Positions 3,393 to 17,000 of a stretch of DNA of 64,000 nucleotides are shown here, in pieces; positions within the stretch are counted from its first letter, which is position 1, and each line of letters starts with the position of its first letter. Position numbers and translations under genes: made by a program. Source of the DNA: a virus. Lineage: Duplodnaviria; Caudoviricetes. Location: positions 1 through 64,000 of the IMG/VR virus record IMGVR_UViG_3300007965_000002; one strand, given 5' to 3'. The notes beneath the pieces were generated by a model that saw only the letters and a list, made by a program, of their open reading frames with translations, ran no database searches and was not told the origin of the DNA.

Positions 3393-3549
3393 TGAGTTCC
3401 TACAAAGTATTACCTCAGTTGACCGTCTAAAGAAGATTAAAGACGTAGCAAGTGATGGGCTAAGGACTGCTGAAAAAGAAGTCTACGAACTTAAAGCATG
3501 GATTAAAGATTTACAAGAACGTATTGATGAATTAAGCAAAAAAGACTAA
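3379..3549 (+). CDS. small coiled-coil hypothetical protein (56 aa, not in ORF track)
   Basis: AAGGA RBS; MALDNEFLQSITSVDRLKK...DELSKKD; overlaps the upstream stop. Confidence 0.65.
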   Translation: MALDNEFLQSITSVDRLKKIKDVASDGLRTAEKEVYELKAWIKDLQERIDELSKKD

Positions 3550-3557
3550 AATTGTAG

Positions 3558-3586
3558 TTTACATACCGCTTAATTTACCGTATAAT
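3558..3586 (+). promoter_or_regulatory. early promoter
   Basis: TTTACA-17-TATAAT. Confidence 0.75.
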
Positions 3587-3610
3587 ATACAAATAAATTA
3601 AGGAAACAAT

Positions 3611-4636
3611 ATGAATAACGAGTTATTAGCAAGGTTTTTTGATAAGACGTTCCAAGTCTTATTTAAGGAAAGAATTACATCTTTTGCCCACTCAGAAAAT
3701 CTAATGGTAAGAAACTTCGTCTATGTATGGATGGAACGTAGCAAGCATTACCCTAGTAAGTCTGGGTCACCCTACCAAGATAGAGTAAAGTTCTGGTTTA
3801 ATGGTGGTAGGCTCAACGCTTTATTAGTTGATAAACGTTGCTTTAGTACCAGAACGGTAACATTATCCAATATTAATTTCATTACGGATAAAACTGCTAA
3901 AGTAACAGTAAAGGAAAGATTTAGTAGTGGCAGAATCGCGGAAACAGTAGAGACTATTGACATAGCTACTATAATTCCAATATTTCCTTCGTATTACGCA
4001 GGAAATGTTAGCGACTTAATTAGAGATTTATCTGATATATCTATGTTCAATAGGGAAACTATAGACGATATTGATGGTAGAGTAGCTGATATATGCTCAG
4101 CAGAACAAACACAAAATACCAACATTAATAGTGATAACTTTACTATCAATGGAACAACTAAAACTAACACACAGGAATCAAACACAATGTCTAAATTAAA
4201 TAAAGCAGCATCAACAGTATTAGCTACAGGTAAAAGCAGCGTAACTTTAGCAGCTAGTATCACAGCAGGTAACGCAACTAACGCAGTTGTTAAAGCAGCT
4301 CTACGTCCTACACTAGAACCTGCTCTACGTAAGATGCTACAGCCTAAAGGTTTTGTACAACGTACACTAGGCAAGGCTAAAGTAGAAGATTCTGTATCAG
4401 CAGTTATGGATTCTCCTTTAATGGATGTACTATCTGCTGCTATCCTAGTAAGTATCACTTCTAGCGGTATGGTAACTAACCAAAAATTAGTTAAAGGAGC
4501 AGCATTAGCATCTGATGCCGCAGCACTTAAACTATTTAGCTTAATTGACTTCGATACGCTAGTATCGGGATTAACAACTAAGATTGGTTCTATTGTTGCT
4601 AACCTTGACGCGGTAGACTCAGATACTGCTGAGTAG
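3611..4636 (+). CDS. hypothetical two-domain protein with a possible internal start at 4187
   Basis: 341-aa ORF with RBS; low-complexity Asn/Thr linker and CAGGA RBS before the internal ATG. Confidence 0.7.
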   Translation: MNNELLARFFDKTFQVLFKERITSFAHSENLMVRNFVYVWMERSKHYPSKSGSPYQDRVKFWFNGGRLNALLVDKRCFSTRTVTLSNINFITDKTAKVTVKERFSSGRIAETVETIDIATIIPIFPSYYAGNVSDLIRDLSDISMFNRETIDDIDGRVADICSAEQTQNTNINSDNFTINGTTKTNTQESNTMSKLNKAASTVLATGKSSVTLAASITAGNATNAVVKAALRPTLEPALRKMLQPKGFVQRTLGKAKVEDSVSAVMDSPLMDVLSAAILVSITSSGMVTNQKLVKGAALASDAAALKLFSLIDFDTLVSGLTTKIGSIVANLDAVDSDTAE

Positions 4637-4640
4637 TAAG

Positions 4641-4673
4641 AAAAAGGGCTACCCTAATAGAGTAGCCCTTTTC
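4641..4673 (+). terminator. intrinsic terminator
   Basis: AAAAAGGGCTAC...GTAGCCCTTTTT. Confidence 0.75.
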
Positions 4674-4691
4674 TATACGCTAAAACTTCTC

Positions 4692-4720
4692 TTTACTAAG
4701 TCATACATTTAACGTATAAT
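4692..4720 (+). promoter_or_regulatory. early promoter
   Basis: TTTACT-17-TATAAT followed by AGCTTTATTGAATTG. Confidence 0.7.
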
Positions 4721-4752
4721 AGCTTTATTGAATTGCAAAAGGAACGAAAAAC

Positions 4753-5022
4753 ATGACAAACGAAACATCAAACAAAGCTACTTTAGTAAACTCTATTGCT
4801 ATTCTACTATCATGTGTACAGCAAACTACTGGATTACAAAAACTAACCGTCCCTACACTAGAAGCTATGTATCAAGGGCTTCTACGTAATGCTAACTCAT
4901 GGCAGTTAGTTAAAGAGGAAGCAAAGGCTGCTAAGAACGAAGCATTCATAGCCAAGGCACGTATCGTTGCTTTAGAGGCAGAAGTTCGTAAATTACAGCG
5001 TAAATTAAAGGGTAATAAATAA
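4753..5022 (+). CDS. hypothetical coiled-coil protein
   Basis: ORF with AAGGA RBS after a promoter. Confidence 0.7.
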   Translation: MTNETSNKATLVNSIAILLSCVQQTTGLQKLTVPTLEAMYQGLLRNANSWQLVKEEAKAAKNEAFIAKARIVALEAEVRKLQRKLKGNK

Positions 5023-5465
5023 TGGAAAAACTAGTACAGTTTCTAACTGAGTTAGCAAAGAACAGTGAAATGAGTGCAACCTCTATGGGGGCGGCAACAG
5101 CAGAAATGCTACTAGATAATAAGGGACATATTGATATGTACTTCTTACGGGATTCGTTAGAAGAAAATATATCACGTACCCAATTACAAAAAGCATTTAA
5201 TCAAGTATTTGGCAAGAATATACCTACTAAGTTTACATTTATCAAGGTAGAAACTGCTATGTCCAAAGAAGTGTTCTTAACAGAAGTCTATGAGCCAGCT
5301 AAGTATCGTAATGTGCGTAGTTGGGTAGGGCACGTAATCAATAATTATAATTGCATGATTAATCGTAAAGATGTATTTGATTGGATTATGTCAACAGCCA
5401 AGTCACATAGTTTAGGTGGAGAATTTTATGGAAATACAGGAACAGCCAAAAATAGCTCTAAATAG
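5022..5465 (+). CDS. hypothetical protein
   Basis: TAATG-coupled ORF. Confidence 0.7.
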   Translation: MEKLVQFLTELAKNSEMSATSMGAATAEMLLDNKGHIDMYFLRDSLEENISRTQLQKAFNQVFGKNIPTKFTFIKVETAMSKEVFLTEVYEPAKYRNVRSWVGHVINNYNCMINRKDVFDWIMSTAKSHSLGGEFYGNTGTAKNSSK

Positions 5466-11756: not shown

Positions 11757-12626
11757 ATGATTAAATTTTCAGAAGATAGTTCAATTCAATTTGATAAACC
11801 TACAGTATATTTTAATGGTGGGGAAGTACACACTACAGTAAAGTGGGGAAGTTACAAATTAAACAAAATTAAGCTGGAAGCTCTTATCAAGACAGCAGAT
11901 GACCTAATGGAATTAGTTATGGTTAAAGATGCTATTGATAGATTGAACGTATTCACTAGACAACCAGTAGTACTAACTATGCCTTATATACCTTATGCTA
12001 GACAGGATAGAGTAGCTAATGTAGGTGAGGCCTTAGGTATTAAAGTATTTGCCGATATGCTAAATGCTATGAACTTTGACAAGGTAGTAGTATCAGACTC
12101 GCATAGTCCTGTAGCCCTAGCATTGATTAAAAATGTTATGGAGATTCCACAAGAAGCTTTACTAGTTAATGTATACCATAGCCATAGTGGTTTCCATTCA
12201 CAAGATATGGTATTAGCACCTGATGTTGGTTCGCTTAAAAAAGCTAAGAAATTTGCGGATAAACTTGAGCTACCACTTTTAACTGCTACTAAGTCTAGAA
12301 ATACTTCTACAGGCATGCTATCTAACGTAGAGATACAGTTTACTAATCAGTTAACTATTGAGTATGTTAAAGATAGAATTAGTAAGGGTGGTAAGTTACT
12401 TATTGTAGATGATATTTGTGATGGTGGTGGAACATTCCTAGGATTAGGTAGTGCTCTGGTAGAAAAAGGATTGCTAAGAGGTAAACCTCGTGATGCAGGT
12501 GATGAACAAGAATTTTCAGGAGCAGCGTTACTAGTAACTCATGGTATTTTTGCTAAAAATGCTAAAGTTAGATTAAGTAAATACTATGAAGTTGTAGCCG
12601 CAGCTTATGACTGGACTAAGGAGTAA
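11757..12626 (+). CDS. prs: ribose-phosphate pyrophosphokinase-like (Prs / possible ADPR-PP synthetase)
   Basis: FNGGE, MPYIPYARQDR, DSHS, LAPDVG, IVDDICDGGGTF, VTHGIF. Confidence 0.9.
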   Translation: MIKFSEDSSIQFDKPTVYFNGGEVHTTVKWGSYKLNKIKLEALIKTADDLMELVMVKDAIDRLNVFTRQPVVLTMPYIPYARQDRVANVGEALGIKVFADMLNAMNFDKVVVSDSHSPVALALIKNVMEIPQEALLVNVYHSHSGFHSQDMVLAPDVGSLKKAKKFADKLELPLLTATKSRNTSTGMLSNVEIQFTNQLTIEYVKDRISKGGKLLIVDDICDGGGTFLGLGSALVEKGLLRGKPRDAGDEQEFSGAALLVTHGIFAKNAKVRLSKYYEVVAAAYDWTKE

Positions 12627-12628
12627 TT

Positions 12629-12895
12629 ATGTTGGTATTATTTATTATATATATTTTATCGTTTGCTACCTTAATGGCTATAGGAGTTTCCACTCTTGTA
12701 CATAAAGACTATAGACATGAAATATATTCAAAAGAGTTTAAAGAGAAATTAGCCAGCCTAGGTTCAGGTAATATTAGTTCCAATGAACAACTAAGAATTA
12801 ACATAGGTATATCTATTATATTTTTAGCCTTAATACCTATACTTAATACACTTACAATTACATCTGCAATAATTATAAAATGGAGAACTAAATGA
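12629..12895 (+). CDS. small membrane protein
   Basis: Two TM helices; ALIPILN motif shared with the next ORF. Confidence 0.65.
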   Translation: MLVLFIIYILSFATLMAIGVSTLVHKDYRHEIYSKEFKEKLASLGSGNISSNEQLRINIGISIIFLALIPILNTLTITSAIIIKWRTK

Positions 12896-13152
12896 TTTAC
12901 TTAATACTACTATATATACTACCAGTACTACTACTATGGGCTTGTGCTGGGTGGATATTTCTAAACCCAGACCACCCTAAATTTTCTAGAGTATATAATG
13001 ACCCACAAATTAAGCTACACTTTGCAGAAGTATTTAATGAAGTCCCTACAAAGGATAAACTAGCTGGCTCATTGGCTCTAGGGACATGTATTTTAGCATG
13101 TATACCTATTTTAAATATACTTTCTATTGCAGCGTTTATACAACTAAAATAG
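12892..13152 (+). CDS. small membrane protein
   Basis: Two TM helices; ACIPILN motif. Confidence 0.65.
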   Translation: MIYLILLYILPVLLLWACAGWIFLNPDHPKFSRVYNDPQIKLHFAEVFNEVPTKDKLAGSLALGTCILACIPILNILSIAAFIQLK

Positions 13153-13161
13153 ATAATTTCC

Positions 13162-13190
13162 TTCCATTAAAGCTATTATTAACGTATAAT
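13162..13190 (+). promoter_or_regulatory. early promoter
   Basis: TTCCAT-17-TATAAT; inverted repeat AAAGCTATTA/TAATAGCTTT spans the -10. Confidence 0.75.
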
Positions 13191-13221
13191 AGCTTTATTG
13201 GATTGGGAAAGGTACAAAACA

Positions 13222-13407
13222 ATGAAACCTAAAGCATTAAAACATATTAAAATGGATGCTGAGCCTACTTATGGAGCAGCAGCAATGAAACCTAAAGTAG
13301 ATAATACGCCAAGTTGTAAAGTATCTAATCTAGAATATAGAGTTTCACAATTAGAAAGAACAGTTAAAATGTTATTAGATGCATTAACAGATTACAAAGG
13401 AAAATAA
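13222..13407 (+). CDS. hypothetical protein
   Basis: AAGG RBS before ATG 13222. Confidence 0.6.
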   Translation: MKPKALKHIKMDAEPTYGAAAMKPKVDNTPSCKVSNLEYRVSQLERTVKMLLDALTDYKGK

Positions 13408-13408
13408 A

Positions 13409-13804
13409 ATGGAAAACGTATACGGTACATTAAAAGGTGACTTAATTGTTATGCGTCGCCACAAGAAGGCAGATAGAATTAAGTTCTACTCATTCCTATT
13501 AGGTGAAATTGACCGAGCAGGTAAAGACCATAGCAATGAAGCTGTTATCAAAGTTTTAACTACAGTACAGAAGCAGTTATCAAAGTCTGCTGTACCAAAT
13601 GAGCTAGAGATTCGTATTATCGGTAACTACTTACCTAAAGTAATGACTAATGATGAAGTAATCCAGTTCTTAATGGAAACTAACCCAATGGGTCAAAAGA
13701 TGGGTGATGTAGTTAAGTCACTTAATATCTTCGCTAAATCAGAGAATAAAACTGTTAATGGTAAAGATGCCATTGACTTAATTAAAAAATACTTAGGGGT
13801 TTAA
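13409..13804 (+). CDS. YqeY/GatB-domain-like protein
   Basis: LLGEI....K, EL.II..YLP..MT..E pattern. Confidence 0.65.
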   Translation: MENVYGTLKGDLIVMRRHKKADRIKFYSFLLGEIDRAGKDHSNEAVIKVLTTVQKQLSKSAVPNELEIRIIGNYLPKVMTNDEVIQFLMETNPMGQKMGDVVKSLNIFAKSENKTVNGKDAIDLIKKYLGV

Positions 13805-13807
13805 CAT

Positions 13808-14692
13808 ATGAACTTACAGAAAATGAATAGTATGGAACGTTTATCTCATGAAGTTATGCCTATGACCTTACAGGATATGTATAAGAGCTTTCACAAGTTC
13901 GCTACAAAACCGGGAGTAGCTTATAACTACTCTAATTTAACACCACGTCATGGTAAGCACTCTAATACCAAGTTAAATGGTGTAGTAACAGTAGGAGCAC
14001 AGTATTTAGTTAAGGAAATCTTAATTAAACTATTTAATCGTGACTTCTTTTGTCGTAATAAAGCTGAAATAATTGCCGAGTATAAGTACTTTATTGAAGG
14101 AGCATTATTTAAGCAGGTAGATACTACCCATATTGAAGCACTACATGACTTAGGGTATTTACCTTTACGTATCAAAGCTTTACCTGAGGGTACTTTTGTT
14201 CCTTATGGTGTACCTACGGTAACAATGCAAAATACAGTACCAGGTTTTGGTTGGCTAGTAGGTGCTTTAGAGGATGAATTTAGTGCTGAGATTTGGCCTA
14301 TTACAACTTCTGCTACTACAGCGTTTAACTACTTAATCACGTTTGAGAAGTCTCGTATTGCAAAAGAAATGATTCCATTCATGGGTCATGACTTTAGTTA
14401 TCGTGGACTACCTGGACATGTAGCAGCAGGTATGATTGGTTTCGGCCACCTAACCTCATTCTATGGTTCTGATACCACACCAGCAGCTATCTTTGCTTGG
14501 AAGTATTACGGAGCTGACGTAGGTGGAGCATTTGCTGGTCATGATGTAGAGCCTATATTTGCCTCTGTTAACGCTACTGAACACTCAGTAGCTACTAGTG
14601 CAATAACTACTATTGAGAATGAATTAAGAGATACAGGTAAATATAAAGGAAAAACTAATAATGAATGGATTAGAGAATTGGAAGGATATTAG
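13808..14692 (+). CDS. nadV: nicotinamide phosphoribosyltransferase family (Nampt/Namat), N-terminal fragment
   Basis: YSNLTPR, YLPLRIKALPEGT, HDFSYRG, FYGSDT, ATEHS; ends about 30 aa after EHS. Confidence 0.85.
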   Translation: MNLQKMNSMERLSHEVMPMTLQDMYKSFHKFATKPGVAYNYSNLTPRHGKHSNTKLNGVVTVGAQYLVKEILIKLFNRDFFCRNKAEIIAEYKYFIEGALFKQVDTTHIEALHDLGYLPLRIKALPEGTFVPYGVPTVTMQNTVPGFGWLVGALEDEFSAEIWPITTSATTAFNYLITFEKSRIAKEMIPFMGHDFSYRGLPGHVAAGMIGFGHLTSFYGSDTTPAAIFAWKYYGADVGGAFAGHDVEPIFASVNATEHSVATSAITTIENELRDTGKYKGKTNNEWIRELEGY

Positions 14693-15257
14693 GGGTTATG
14701 AGGGGCTCTACCAAGTATCTGACCAAGGAAATGTTAGATCCTTAACTAGGACAGTTCAACAAATTTGTGGTCTAAATGGTAAGGAAGTTACTAGAAAGTA
14801 CCTTGGTAAGGTTCTTAAGTTCAACTCAGACAGGAAAGGTTATCTGTACTTATCTTTAAGTACAGAGGGTAAACAGAAAACATTTAAAGTGCATAGATTA
14901 GTGGCTGAACATTTTATACCTAACCCACAAAATCTACCGGAAGTGAATCATCTTTATGGTAAAAAAGAAGATAATAGGGTATCTAGCCTAGAATGGAGTA
15001 CCTCTAGTGGGAATAAGAAACATGCTATTAATATGGGATTAAAAGAGAATCCTTTTGGAGATAAAGCTCATAACTATCGTGGAGATGTAGAAGTATACAA
15101 TAAAGAAGAAAAACTAATTGATATACTTAAAGGACACAAAGATATAATAAGTAAAGGTTACTCCTCTTCTGGTGTTAGTGCGTGCTTAACAGGTAGACAA
15201 AAGACCCATAGAGGGTGTACATTTAAATTAATACATAAGGATAGACACAATGGATAA
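14661..15257 (+). mobile_element. free-standing NUMOD4-HNH homing endonuclease inserted in the Nampt gene
   Basis: WKDIRGYEGLYQVSDQGNVRS (NUMOD4), VHRLVA..F, VNH..GKKEDN...LEW (HNH), C-terminal NUMOD1-like SACLTGRQKTHRG; own RBS. Confidence 0.9.
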
Positions 15258-16131
15258 TAAGTTACTAGCAGAAGTTTTACATATGAAAGAATTAATGACA
15301 GAAGTTGCACCTACTGGCATACTATCTATGGTAGCAGATAGTTATGACTTTTGGTCAGTAGTATCTATAGGACTACCTCTACTAAAAAATACCATCATGG
15401 CTCGGGATGGTACACTAGTTATTCGTCCTGACTCCGGTGACCCAGTTAAGATTGTTTGTGGTTACAAACTATTTAGTAAGTTTAAGTTTGAAACCCTAAA
15501 TGACGCACTTGGCCATGCAAGCGCATTCCCACAAGACACATATGACTATGAAGTATATGAGTTAGAAGATGGACGCTTCGTTGATATAGAACGTGGTTGT
15601 TACGTAGAGAAACATGAAGTTAAAGGATTAATTGAATGTTTATGGGATATTTTCGGTGGTACTACTGATACAGAGGGTTATCGTACTCTAGACTCACATA
15701 TTGGAGCAATCTATGGTGACTCTATTACGTTAGCTCGTTCAGCAGAGTTCATTGAACGTCTAGAAGCTAAGATGTTTATCCCTACATGTGTTCAGGGTAT
15801 TGGTAGTTTTTCATATCAATACGTTACCCGTGATACTCATGGCTTTGCGATGAAGTCCACGGCGATTAAGTTTGAGTGGAACAGAGAGTGGACTCCTATA
15901 TGGAAAGAGCCTGCTACTGACTCAGGTAAGAACTCTGCAAAGGGTCTTATGATGGTTAAGTCTTTCAATGATAATACTATGTATCAATTAGTAGAGAATG
16001 TATCAGCGGATATGGAAGCACGTGGCGCCTTAGATATTATCTTTGAAGATAGTGTACTATTTAAGGAAACTACACTTACTGAAATTCGTAACAATATCAA
16101 GAACATTAATCGCTCTTTAGCTATCAAATAA
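15250..16131 (+). CDS. nadV: nicotinamide phosphoribosyltransferase family, C-terminal fragment
   Basis: PTGILSMVADSYD, IRPDSGDP, IYGDSIT, GIGSFSYQYVTRDT.GFAMK, KNSAKG; own AAGGA RBS. Confidence 0.85.
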   Translation: MDNKLLAEVLHMKELMTEVAPTGILSMVADSYDFWSVVSIGLPLLKNTIMARDGTLVIRPDSGDPVKIVCGYKLFSKFKFETLNDALGHASAFPQDTYDYEVYELEDGRFVDIERGCYVEKHEVKGLIECLWDIFGGTTDTEGYRTLDSHIGAIYGDSITLARSAEFIERLEAKMFIPTCVQGIGSFSYQYVTRDTHGFAMKSTAIKFEWNREWTPIWKEPATDSGKNSAKGLMMVKSFNDNTMYQLVENVSADMEARGALDIIFEDSVLFKETTLTEIRNNIKNINRSLAIK

Positions 16132-16143
16132 GCTGTAACGTTG

Positions 16144-16203
16144 AAAAAGCACTTCCATTGGAGGTGCTTTTTGCGTATAATAGCTTTATAGAATTGAGAA
16201 AGG
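16144..16203 (+). promoter_or_regulatory. terminator-promoter-RBS cassette, copy 4
   Basis: Identical to copy 2 at 8821. Confidence 0.85.
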
Positions 16204-16212
16204 GAACGAATA

Positions 16213-16707
16213 ATGGAAAAGCAAATAATAGAAGCAGCAAATAACCTTATGAGATACATACTAATAGCCTATGGTTTTGAACTAAAACATAGAGTTACTA
16301 TTAAATTTGACTTAAAAGGTCGTGCAGCAGGCGAAGCTATCTACTATGTGGAAGATGATGCTTTCGTTATTCGTTTTAACAAAGAAGCTGGCCTAGATTT
16401 TATAATATCAGATACTTTACCACACGAAATGGCTCATGTATTGGAAGCTGCTTTTGGAGGTAAAATGTCGCATGGTAAAGCTTGGAACTATTACTGTCTT
16501 GAGTTAGGTGGTACAGGTTTAACATACCACTCTCTAGACCTGACACCTGCTAGAAAAACTAGAATGTTCCTTTACGTAGTAAAGGGTGAACATTGTGAGT
16601 TAACCATTATTAGACATAATAGAATACAAAAGAAAGATATGTTCTACATATCCAACGATACTGGTAACGAAATTAGAAAACAACACTTTGTAAAGGAAAT
16701 TATATAA
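16213..16707 (+). CDS. SprT-like zinc metalloprotease domain protein
   Basis: LKGRAAG, TLPHEMAH, HG.AW, C..LGG..H. Confidence 0.8.
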   Translation: MEKQIIEAANNLMRYILIAYGFELKHRVTIKFDLKGRAAGEAIYYVEDDAFVIRFNKEAGLDFIISDTLPHEMAHVLEAAFGGKMSHGKAWNYYCLELGGTGLTYHSLDLTPARKTRMFLYVVKGEHCELTIIRHNRIQKKDMFYISNDTGNEIRKQHFVKEII

Positions 16708-17000
16708 TGAAAGATAGAGGCAAGACATTCTTTAATAACTCATTCAACGAGACTGGATACATTAAGTGGCAAATTAAGTCGGGTAAAGATAGAACATATA
16801 AGGGCGACATATTAGATGGTAGTTTAATTATTGCGGACTGTAATAGTAATATATGCCTAGATTTTGATTGTGAAGAAGCACATCAAGTAGCCAAGCGCAT
16901 TGAGAAACTTGATGTAATGATAACTGAATTAAACCGTATGCGCGAAGCTTTAGTTAAAGCTAACACCGAAATTACAACAACCAAAAAGTTCTATTACTAG
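16707..17000 (+). CDS. hypothetical protein
   Basis: TAATG-coupled ORF. Confidence 0.65.
   Translation: MKDRGKTFFNNSFNETGYIKWQIKSGKDRTYKGDILDGSLIIADCNSNICLDFDCEEAHQVAKRIEKLDVMITELNRMREALVKANTEITTTKKFYY

Follow-up and report, generated by a model that had tools for sequence, protein, structure and literature searches.

Can a phage enzyme remain in use when an endonuclease gene lies in the middle of its coding sequence, and which enzyme would that be? This question is raised by positions 13808 to 16131 of the IMG/VR virus record IMGVR_UViG_3300007965_000002 (Duplodnaviria; Caudoviricetes), of which the first 64,000 nucleotides (nt), here referred to as the window, were analyzed; its nearest relatives place the phage in a T5-like lineage. 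A preliminary description had read the region as a gene of the Nampt/Namat family in pieces, split by an intronless HNH endonuclease gene. Our analysis makes it likely that a Namat gene of the NARP1 type has been cut into two cistrons by an I-HmuI-like HNH cassette and that the two chains form a working enzyme, an explanation in which we infer both binding and activity. NARP1 is a recently discovered phage counterdefense against immunity that depletes nicotinamide adenine dinucleotide (NAD).

Layout of the interrupted gene

The list of open reading frames (ORFs) contains three overlapping plus-strand ORFs in 13808 to 16131, each in another frame. They encode the N-terminal half of Namat (N-half; 13808 to 14692, frame 2, 294 amino acids [aa]), a free-standing I-HmuI-like NUMOD4/HNH homing endonuclease (14661 to 15257, frame 0, 198 aa), and the C-terminal half of Namat (C-half; 15250 to 16131, frame 1, 293 aa). 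The first two ORFs overlap by 32 nt and the last two by 8 nt, and therefore no noncoding DNA is left between the three. This is exactly the arrangement that had been claimed, with ORFs in three frames, an HNH ORF that overlaps both halves, and no noncoding space. On the 500 positions of PHROG 448, the N-half covers 3 to 263 and the C-half 263 to 495; on NCBIfam NF006629, the corresponding segments are 6 to 242 and 241 to 462, and the C-half also matches Pfam NAPRTase (4.5e-24). Judged by these profiles, the two outer ORFs together make up a single Nampt-family protein, one half each.

The HNH ORF matches NUMOD4 (Pfam, 8.8e-16), phrog_59, and PDB entry 1u3e (I-HmuI; 9e-15), the last with the His/Asn motif VNH...DN...N aligned, while its matches to HNH_3 and I-HmuI_NUMOD-like stay below the cutoff. 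The I-HmuI-like features are all present, i.e., a NUMOD4 N terminus, the HNH motif, and a NUMOD-like DNA-binding tail, and the ORF occurs as a single copy in the 89.9-kb genome record.

Each ORF was also said to have a ribosome-binding site of its own, and Shine-Dalgarno (SD)-like sites indeed precede all three starts on the plus strand. TAGGGG at 13794 to 13799, read from the sequence, serves the N-half; AAGGA at 14646 to 14650 precedes the HNH ORF with a long, 10-nt spacing and is a weak site; and the C-half has an AAGGA at 15237 to 15241, which falls in the 3′-terminal part of the HNH ORF and is separated by 8 nt from the ATG at 15250. A purine run resembling an SD is found before the C-half ATG in the split loci L001, L002, and L007 and, in a weaker form, in L008. 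No terminator-like site separates the three ORFs on the plus strand of 13808 to 16131, and a strong plus-strand hairpin terminator at 16144 to 16172 closes the transcription unit 3′ of the C-half (−26.9 kcal/mol; z = −6.05; 0 of 200 shuffles fold equally well). In the mechanism that we propose, the three ORFs would be cotranscribed up to this single terminator, the N-half would stop inside the start of the endonuclease gene, and translation of the C-half would begin anew at an SD and ATG of its own, 8 nt short of the end of the endonuclease ORF. The two chains would cofold into a Namat-like protomer, and two such pairs would build the usual head-to-tail dimer, whose active site would need residues of both chains.

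Identity of the enzyme

The best PDB matches of both halves are the SPbetaL1 Namat structures 9w5w and 9w5x (N-half, ~4e-50; C-half, 2.6e-52 with 9w5x), whereas human NAMPT is matched more weakly (~2e-18 and ~2e-11, respectively). In the alignments to 9w5w/9w5x, the N-half reaches native residue 248 and the C-half starts at native residue 257. Through these alignments, the ligand residues listed in PMC12774641 were mapped onto the halves. The N-half holds D23 and Y25 (D13′ and Y15′ in SPbetaL1), K50 (at the position of R40′), F196, S197, and R199 (F189, S190, and R192), D222 (D215), and A256 (A242), together with the catalytic His, H259, in ATEHS. The C-half holds R59 and D61 (R306 and D308), G156-D157-S158 (G360-D361-A362), G185-S186-F187 (G390-S391-F392), and Y191 (Y396), and T193-R194-D195 is present as well, with R194 equivalent to R399′. 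Across the two halves, the SPbetaL1 ligand residues are thus kept except for Lys in place of R40 in the selectivity-clamp loop (SCL) and Ser in place of A362. The assignment of the His motif to the N-half and of RPDSG (R59 to G63) and GDS (G156 to S158) to the C-half, made in the preliminary description, agrees with this mapping.

Namat is distinguished by an aromatic pair in the selectivity-clamp helix (SCH), F392/Y396, which is not in Nampt (PMC12774641). In the C-half, the segment GSFSYQYVTRD supplies this pair as F187 and Y191. In the SCL, R40 stacks on adenine, and Lys and Tyr variants occur in which a later residue takes that role (PMC12774641).

A Prs-like gene, the candidate Adps partner of NARP1, lies 1.2 kb upstream of the N-half on the same strand (11757 to 12626, plus strand, 289 aa; Pfam Pribosyltran and Pribosyltran_N; phrog_619). 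Its product falls below every NCBIfam Prs cutoff (102 bits versus 113 for TIGR01251), and a PDB search with it did not separate Adps from Prs. A Prs-like gene is located upstream of the split gene also in L001, L002, L003, L007, L008, and phage phiTE. No NMNAT-type family was found in the 89.9-kb genome record, and therefore the phage itself could not carry nicotinamide mononucleotide (NMN) to NAD+. The Prs-like gene and the split gene are best read as NARP1 (Adps plus Namat), and it appears from the sequence that neither half could be active alone. With the upstream Adps, the enzyme would rebuild NAD+ from ADP-ribose and nicotinamide to counter NAD-depleting defenses.

Among the alternatives, the one that survives best is that the two halves form an active but ordinary Nampt, which would make NMN from nicotinamide and phosphoribosyl pyrophosphate (PRPP) next to a true PRPP synthetase. 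Namat does retain Nampt activity in vitro (PMC12774641), and the SCL residue is a Lys instead of an Arg; moreover, five small ORFs stand between the Prs-like gene and the split gene, and the database family names read Nampt/NAPRTase. Against these points, a solved Namat is by far the best PDB match, the SCH pair that Nampt lacks is in place, the Prs-like protein fails all Prs cutoffs, and an NMNAT-type adenylyltransferase was not found in the genome record. We consider an ordinary Nampt unlikely and, on these sequence features, identify the enzyme as Namat type (NARP1), a new point relative to the description of the related phage CB7 discussed below. The five small ORFs (12629 to 13804) form a block that is conserved in the near-identical contigs L012 to L016, and those at 12629 to 12895 and 12892 to 13152 resemble paralogous small membrane proteins.

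Of the known systems, the NARP1 Namat of SPbetaL1 and Bas63 (Osterman et al. 2024 preprint; Lan et al. 2026, PMC12774641) is the closest in sequence to both halves and shares with them the catalytic His, the ligand residues, the SCH aromatic pair, and the Prs-like partner gene. It is a single chain of ~490 aa in which the catalytic His is followed by a short loop, in contrast to the two chains, the long-loop excursion, and the SCL Lys of the window Namat.

Fate of the split enzyme

If the insertion had inactivated Namat, the two ORFs would be decaying remnants carried along with the selfish element. Signs of such decay are seen at the P0022 locus, where the HNH gene is fragmented (114 plus 68 aa) and the C-half is short (199 aa); this locus may be a decaying example. 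The window presents a different picture. Compared with the 77%-identical L001, which comes from a metagenome and is split in the same way (78% identity in the N-half and 72% in the C-half), roughly estimated ratios of nonsynonymous to synonymous substitution rates (dN/dS) are 0.10 (N-half core) and 0.18 (C-half), near the 0.12 of the Prs-like partner. With 13 split N-halves and 5 split C-halves among the aligned sequences, the catalytic His and most of the ligand residues fall in columns that vary little or not at all. Each half forms an uninterrupted ORF of full length in the window, L001, L002, L007, phiTE, L003, and L073 (44 to 78% identity), and the SD and ATG of the C-half are maintained. 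No second Nampt-family copy was found in the 89.9-kb record, which is 77% complete.

Split alleles that have no endonuclease bear on the same question. In L073 (3489 to 5154), the N-half (3489 to 4322) and the C-half (4378 to 5154) are intact, separated by a 55-nt spacer, and preceded immediately by a Prs-like gene; L079 has the same arrangement. The tail and head of the L073 halves resemble those of L003, a locus that contains an insert, and the endonuclease of L073 has probably been lost with the gene left in two pieces. The split therefore outlasts the selfish gene.

The phage is found on dozens of contigs with a practically identical locus. Contigs L012 to L016, from several metagenomes, differ from the window at 0 to 4 positions over the 2,324 nt of 13808 to 16131. 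The four differences, E127D and I250T in the N-half, E14G in the HNH protein, and I24V in the C-half, are all nonsynonymous, as decay would have it, but they are far too few to carry meaning or to yield a dN/dS. A dead gene is, in our estimate, slightly less probable than an ordinary Nampt. Purifying selection, active-site residues shared between the halves, restart signals, recurrence, and endonuclease-free split alleles all favor the genes-in-pieces reading of the preliminary description: the split is real and probably functional, and the two halves most likely work as two polypeptides. As in the literature, we infer the function in trans.

Could the insert instead be removed at the RNA or protein level, so that a single-chain enzyme is produced? 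Endonucleases of the I-HmuI family are classically intron encoded, and the window HNH protein matches that family (1u3e). I-HmuI itself, an HNH nicking endonuclease of Bacillus phage SPO1, has in common with the window ORF the NUMOD4 start, an HNH core with aligned His and Asn, and a C-terminal NUMOD-like DNA-binding region, but it resides within a self-splicing group I intron, whereas no intron surrounds the window ORF. An Rfam scan of 13000 to 17000 at E<=10 gave no intron family, and RNA folding was no better than that of shuffled sequences (z-scores of +0.62 and +0.11 at the two junctions and +0.43 for the whole 686-nt insert). Only ~70 nt of the insert lie outside the HNH ORF, and these encode the N-half tail. 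As to protein splicing, Pfam revealed no Hint-type domain in either half, and the residues unexplained by Namat homology, ~10 at the N-half end and 4 at the C-half start, are far too short for intein halves and thus leave no room for an intein. The insertion had been called intronless and not an intein, and these data bear out both statements. Fractured genes with split inteins and a free-standing endonuclease (Dassa et al. 2009, PMC2677866) likewise have an enzyme gene in two parts with an endonuclease gene between them, but the window locus is devoid of intein halves and of a Hint domain.

Three specific candidates were rejected: a split intein, given the short tails; ribosomal bypass, given a gap of ~560 nt from stop to restart, 10 times the length of known ribosomal hops; and a frameshift fusion of the N-half to the HNH protein, given that no slippery site was seen by eye in the overlap. 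At other loci, the HNH gene lies on the opposite strand (L087) or is missing while the two cistrons persist (L073).

Searching with the N-half tail by tblastn led to the Pectobacterium phages phiTE and CB7 and the DU_PP phages. In phiTE, annotated in 2012, the Nampt N-part (phiTE_195), an HNH protein (phiTE_196), and the Nampt C-part (phiTE_197) show the same overlaps and junction sequences as the window, and the HNH proteins are 43% identical over 183 aa. In CB7, reverse transcription-PCR (RT-PCR) showed that the inserts in the terminase, polymerase, and ribonucleotide reductase genes are spliced, whereas the HNH gene CB7_245 is not spliced from the nicotinamide phosphoribosyl transferase transcript, and a two-peptide enzyme like NrdA of phage Aeh1 was proposed (Buttimer et al. 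2020, PMC7344957). Although the CB7 authors termed their insert an intron, the unspliced transcript and the evidence above make removal of the insert, be it as a degenerate group I intron, by ribosomal bypass, or by protein trans-splicing, highly improbable.

The same reports overturn the earlier statement that no such case was known for this family, since phiTE and CB7 share the split at the same site. CB7_244/246 of vB_PatM_CB7, split by CB7_245, and phiTE_195/196/197 agree with the window in the gene family affected, the position of the split (after ATEHSVAT..I..EL..G.Y.GK), the order of N-half, overlapping NUMOD4-HNH ORF, and C-half, the C-half head (..L.AE..), and the Prs-like gene upstream. 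They differ in that a Certrevirus myovirus stands against a T5-like phage and in that the halves are only ~45% identical; the CB7 authors also used other labels, intron for the insert and Nampt for the enzyme (PMC7344957). PHROGs already holds separate families for the two halves (phrog_16547 and phrog_15800). The window is therefore a T5-like addition to an arrangement already described in Certrevirus phages and is mostly confirmatory in this respect. The NARP1/Namat papers make no mention of split forms, and no further paper on the split was found in the literature searched. The comparative picture, comprising Namat identity, recurrence, a mobile cassette with exon flanks, and endonuclease turnover and loss, is undescribed in that literature.

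Several points weigh against a working two-chain Namat. K50 aligns with the SCL R40, and no compensating stacking residue was picked out. The SD of the HNH ORF is weak, and the RT-PCR evidence comes from a distant phage, CB7, with an HNH protein 43% identical to that of the window. The synonymous divergence between the window and L001 is saturated (dS of 1.2 to 1.4), which makes the dN/dS ratios rough, and if the two lineages were invaded independently, some of the divergence may be older than the split. Finally, the negative result for a second Nampt-family copy covers only the 77% of the genome in the record.

Break site and mobility of the insert

Where the gene is broken depends on the homologue chosen for comparison. 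The break had been placed just after the EHS motif, which holds against short-loop homologues only; against the long-loop Namat P0009, it falls ~30 codons past EHS. The N-half tail aligns with P0009 residues 240 to 269, i.e., 30 residues beyond EHS (57% identity), and the C-half aligns from its residue 5 with residues 280 to 335 (68% identity); the break therefore lies within a loop. In an AlphaFold2 model of P0009 with a mean predicted local distance difference test score (pLDDT) of 94.6, the catalytic His opens a helix (242 to 259), which is followed by a short hairpin, a helix (267 to 271), a loop (272 to 277), and another helix (278 to 294). The window break corresponds to residues 270 to 279, between the predicted helices 267 to 271 and 278 to 294, with a pLDDT mostly above 90. 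When the N-half was modeled alone with AlphaFold2, its tail (residues 262 to 291, predicted as helix, hairpin, and helix) kept the helix-hairpin-helix (helices 256 to 276 and 284 to 291) at a pLDDT of ~70 to 85. Long-loop Namats natively have this structured helix-hairpin-helix excursion, and the position of the break at its tip, in a predicted loop, would plausibly explain why the split is tolerated.

The split-type segment is found in frame, joined to the C-half head (..L[LV]AE.L.MK.L..), in long-loop Namats that carry no interruption, namely, P0009 and P0012 (515 aa), gp018 of Pseudomonas phage PaP1 (562 aa), and the proteins of Klebsiella phage FKP3 and Vibrio phage RYC. For this reason, we rejected the idea that the N-half tail (..GKT.EELW.L*) is a by-product of the overlap or an element-derived peptide as in Aeh1. 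The long-loop single-chain Namats may represent the ancestral homing site or may be re-fused scars of earlier splits.

The nrdA/mobE locus of Aeromonas phage Aeh1 (Friedrich et al. 2007; Crona et al. 2011, PMC3045599) also has a free-standing HNH-family endonuclease in a conserved metabolic gene. The Aeh1 halves are translated separately and have been shown to assemble and stay active, whereas in the window assembly and activity are putative. The enzymes are different, and the interaction peptides of Aeh1 derive from the inserted element, in contrast to the window, where most of the N-half tail and C-half head is native long-loop Namat sequence carried as cassette flanks.

How often has the site been invaded? 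Megablast of the region against GenBank phages gave no match, and distant and protein search modes were used instead; similarly, a survey by motif alone (the EHS-RPDSG distance) missed many loci and was replaced by local tblastn. Among 118 homologues with the motif, 15 were split, i.e., ended within 60 residues of ATEHS, and the other 103 were uninterrupted at the site, which follows the invariant ATEHS motif, as were 77 of the 80 best IMG/VR relatives in local tblastn. Five neighborhoods (L001, L002, L007, L008, and the P0022 locus) each consist of an N-half, an overlapping NUMOD4-HNH ORF, and a C-half. In a phylogeny of the N-terminal region, 13 changes are required to account for the split state, and well-supported branches force at least 8 of them.

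Sister pairs of alleles further illustrate this history. P0022 (split) and P0032 (intact), as well as P0006 and P0026, are near identical up to ATEHS(V) and then diverge completely; after ATEHS, split alleles read A[TC]S.I..I..EL..TG.YNGKT.EELW, whereas intact short-loop alleles read MCSYGNEGE. In the window, the left flank of the mobile cassette (14591 to 14660, plus strand) is long-loop-type Namat coding sequence (ATS.I..IE.EL..TG.Y.GKT) that replaces the short-loop MCSYG.EGE. The first ~60 residues of the C-half also match long-loop proteins best, while the N-half core matches short-loop proteins best, and in sliding windows the distal C-half is nearer to the short-loop P0005 than to the long-loop P0009. 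We read this pattern as homing with coconversion, in which the endonuclease would spread together with flanking donor sequence. During coinfection, the selfish endonuclease would cut uninterrupted Namat alleles near the conserved ATEHS codons and would be copied in along with its flanks. The endonuclease body itself has been replaced: the window HNH protein is nearer to that of L002 (52% identity over 185 aa) than to that of L001 (41% over 102 aa), although the Namat halves are closest to L001.

As a tentative proposal, which we hold to be somewhat less probable than its opposite, the mobile unit would comprise the HNH gene together with ~30 upstream and ~60 downstream codons of long-loop Namat. 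It would install the helix-hairpin-helix excursion with the break at its tip, so that the selfish element brings an adaptor that lets the host enzyme survive the cut. If true, such a unit would explain how divergent Namat genes came to be invaded successfully time after time and why stable split alleles persist after the endonuclease is gone.

Other inserts are found at the same site. The split Namat gene of L003 (4001 to 6229) is interrupted by a 213-aa ORF with an HNH-like C terminus and no Pfam match, and its tails share homology with those of L073, which has no endonuclease. In L087 (3498 to 6089), a 240-aa HNH gene on the opposite strand (4312 to 5034) lies between a 283-aa N-half and a 336-aa C-half and is a third, unrelated type. 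The region just after ATEHS is thus a hot spot for at least three endonuclease types.

These findings have consequences beyond the window. If a sizeable fraction of natural Namats have two chains, surveys and annotation pipelines that expect one protein of ~490 aa miscount or discard them. The natural split point offers a design that can be taken over directly for a split Namat/Nampt reporter or a complementation system. For homing-endonuclease biology, the locus provides a clean comparative system, with many independent invasions of one site and mosaic flanks, and it also displays exchange of the endonuclease type and endonuclease loss without re-fusion.

Minor observations were made at and around the split genes. 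At 14655 to 14700 of the window, the end of the N-half and the beginning of the HNH ORF give rise to similar peptides (..E-W.. and ..EE.WK) from two overlapping frames, through a quasi-repeat at the DNA level. The same quasi-repeat is present in L001 around 4845 to 4885, with the units GTGGAAGAACAGTGGAAG and GTGGAAGAGCTATGGAAA; it may stem from microhomology that served the original insertion, or the overlap may have produced it by chance. The neighbors of the split gene in L003 include PARG, two ADP-ribosylglycohydrolase genes, the Prs-like gene, and a nucleoside deoxyribosyltransferase gene, and its intact sisters include a Chitinophagaceae (Puia) protein; L003 may therefore be a bacterial NARP1-like locus. 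HNH genes also occur between the Prs-like and Namat genes, at L009:1222-1779 (phiTE_194), at L010:2483-3058 (FKP3), and in Pseudoalteromonas phage H101, and NARP1 operons seem to draw homing endonucleases at more than one position. Directly after the terminator of the window locus, 16213 to 16707 encodes a homologue of SprT-like zinc metalloproteases (NCBIfam NF003421, 7.8e-15, below the cutoff).

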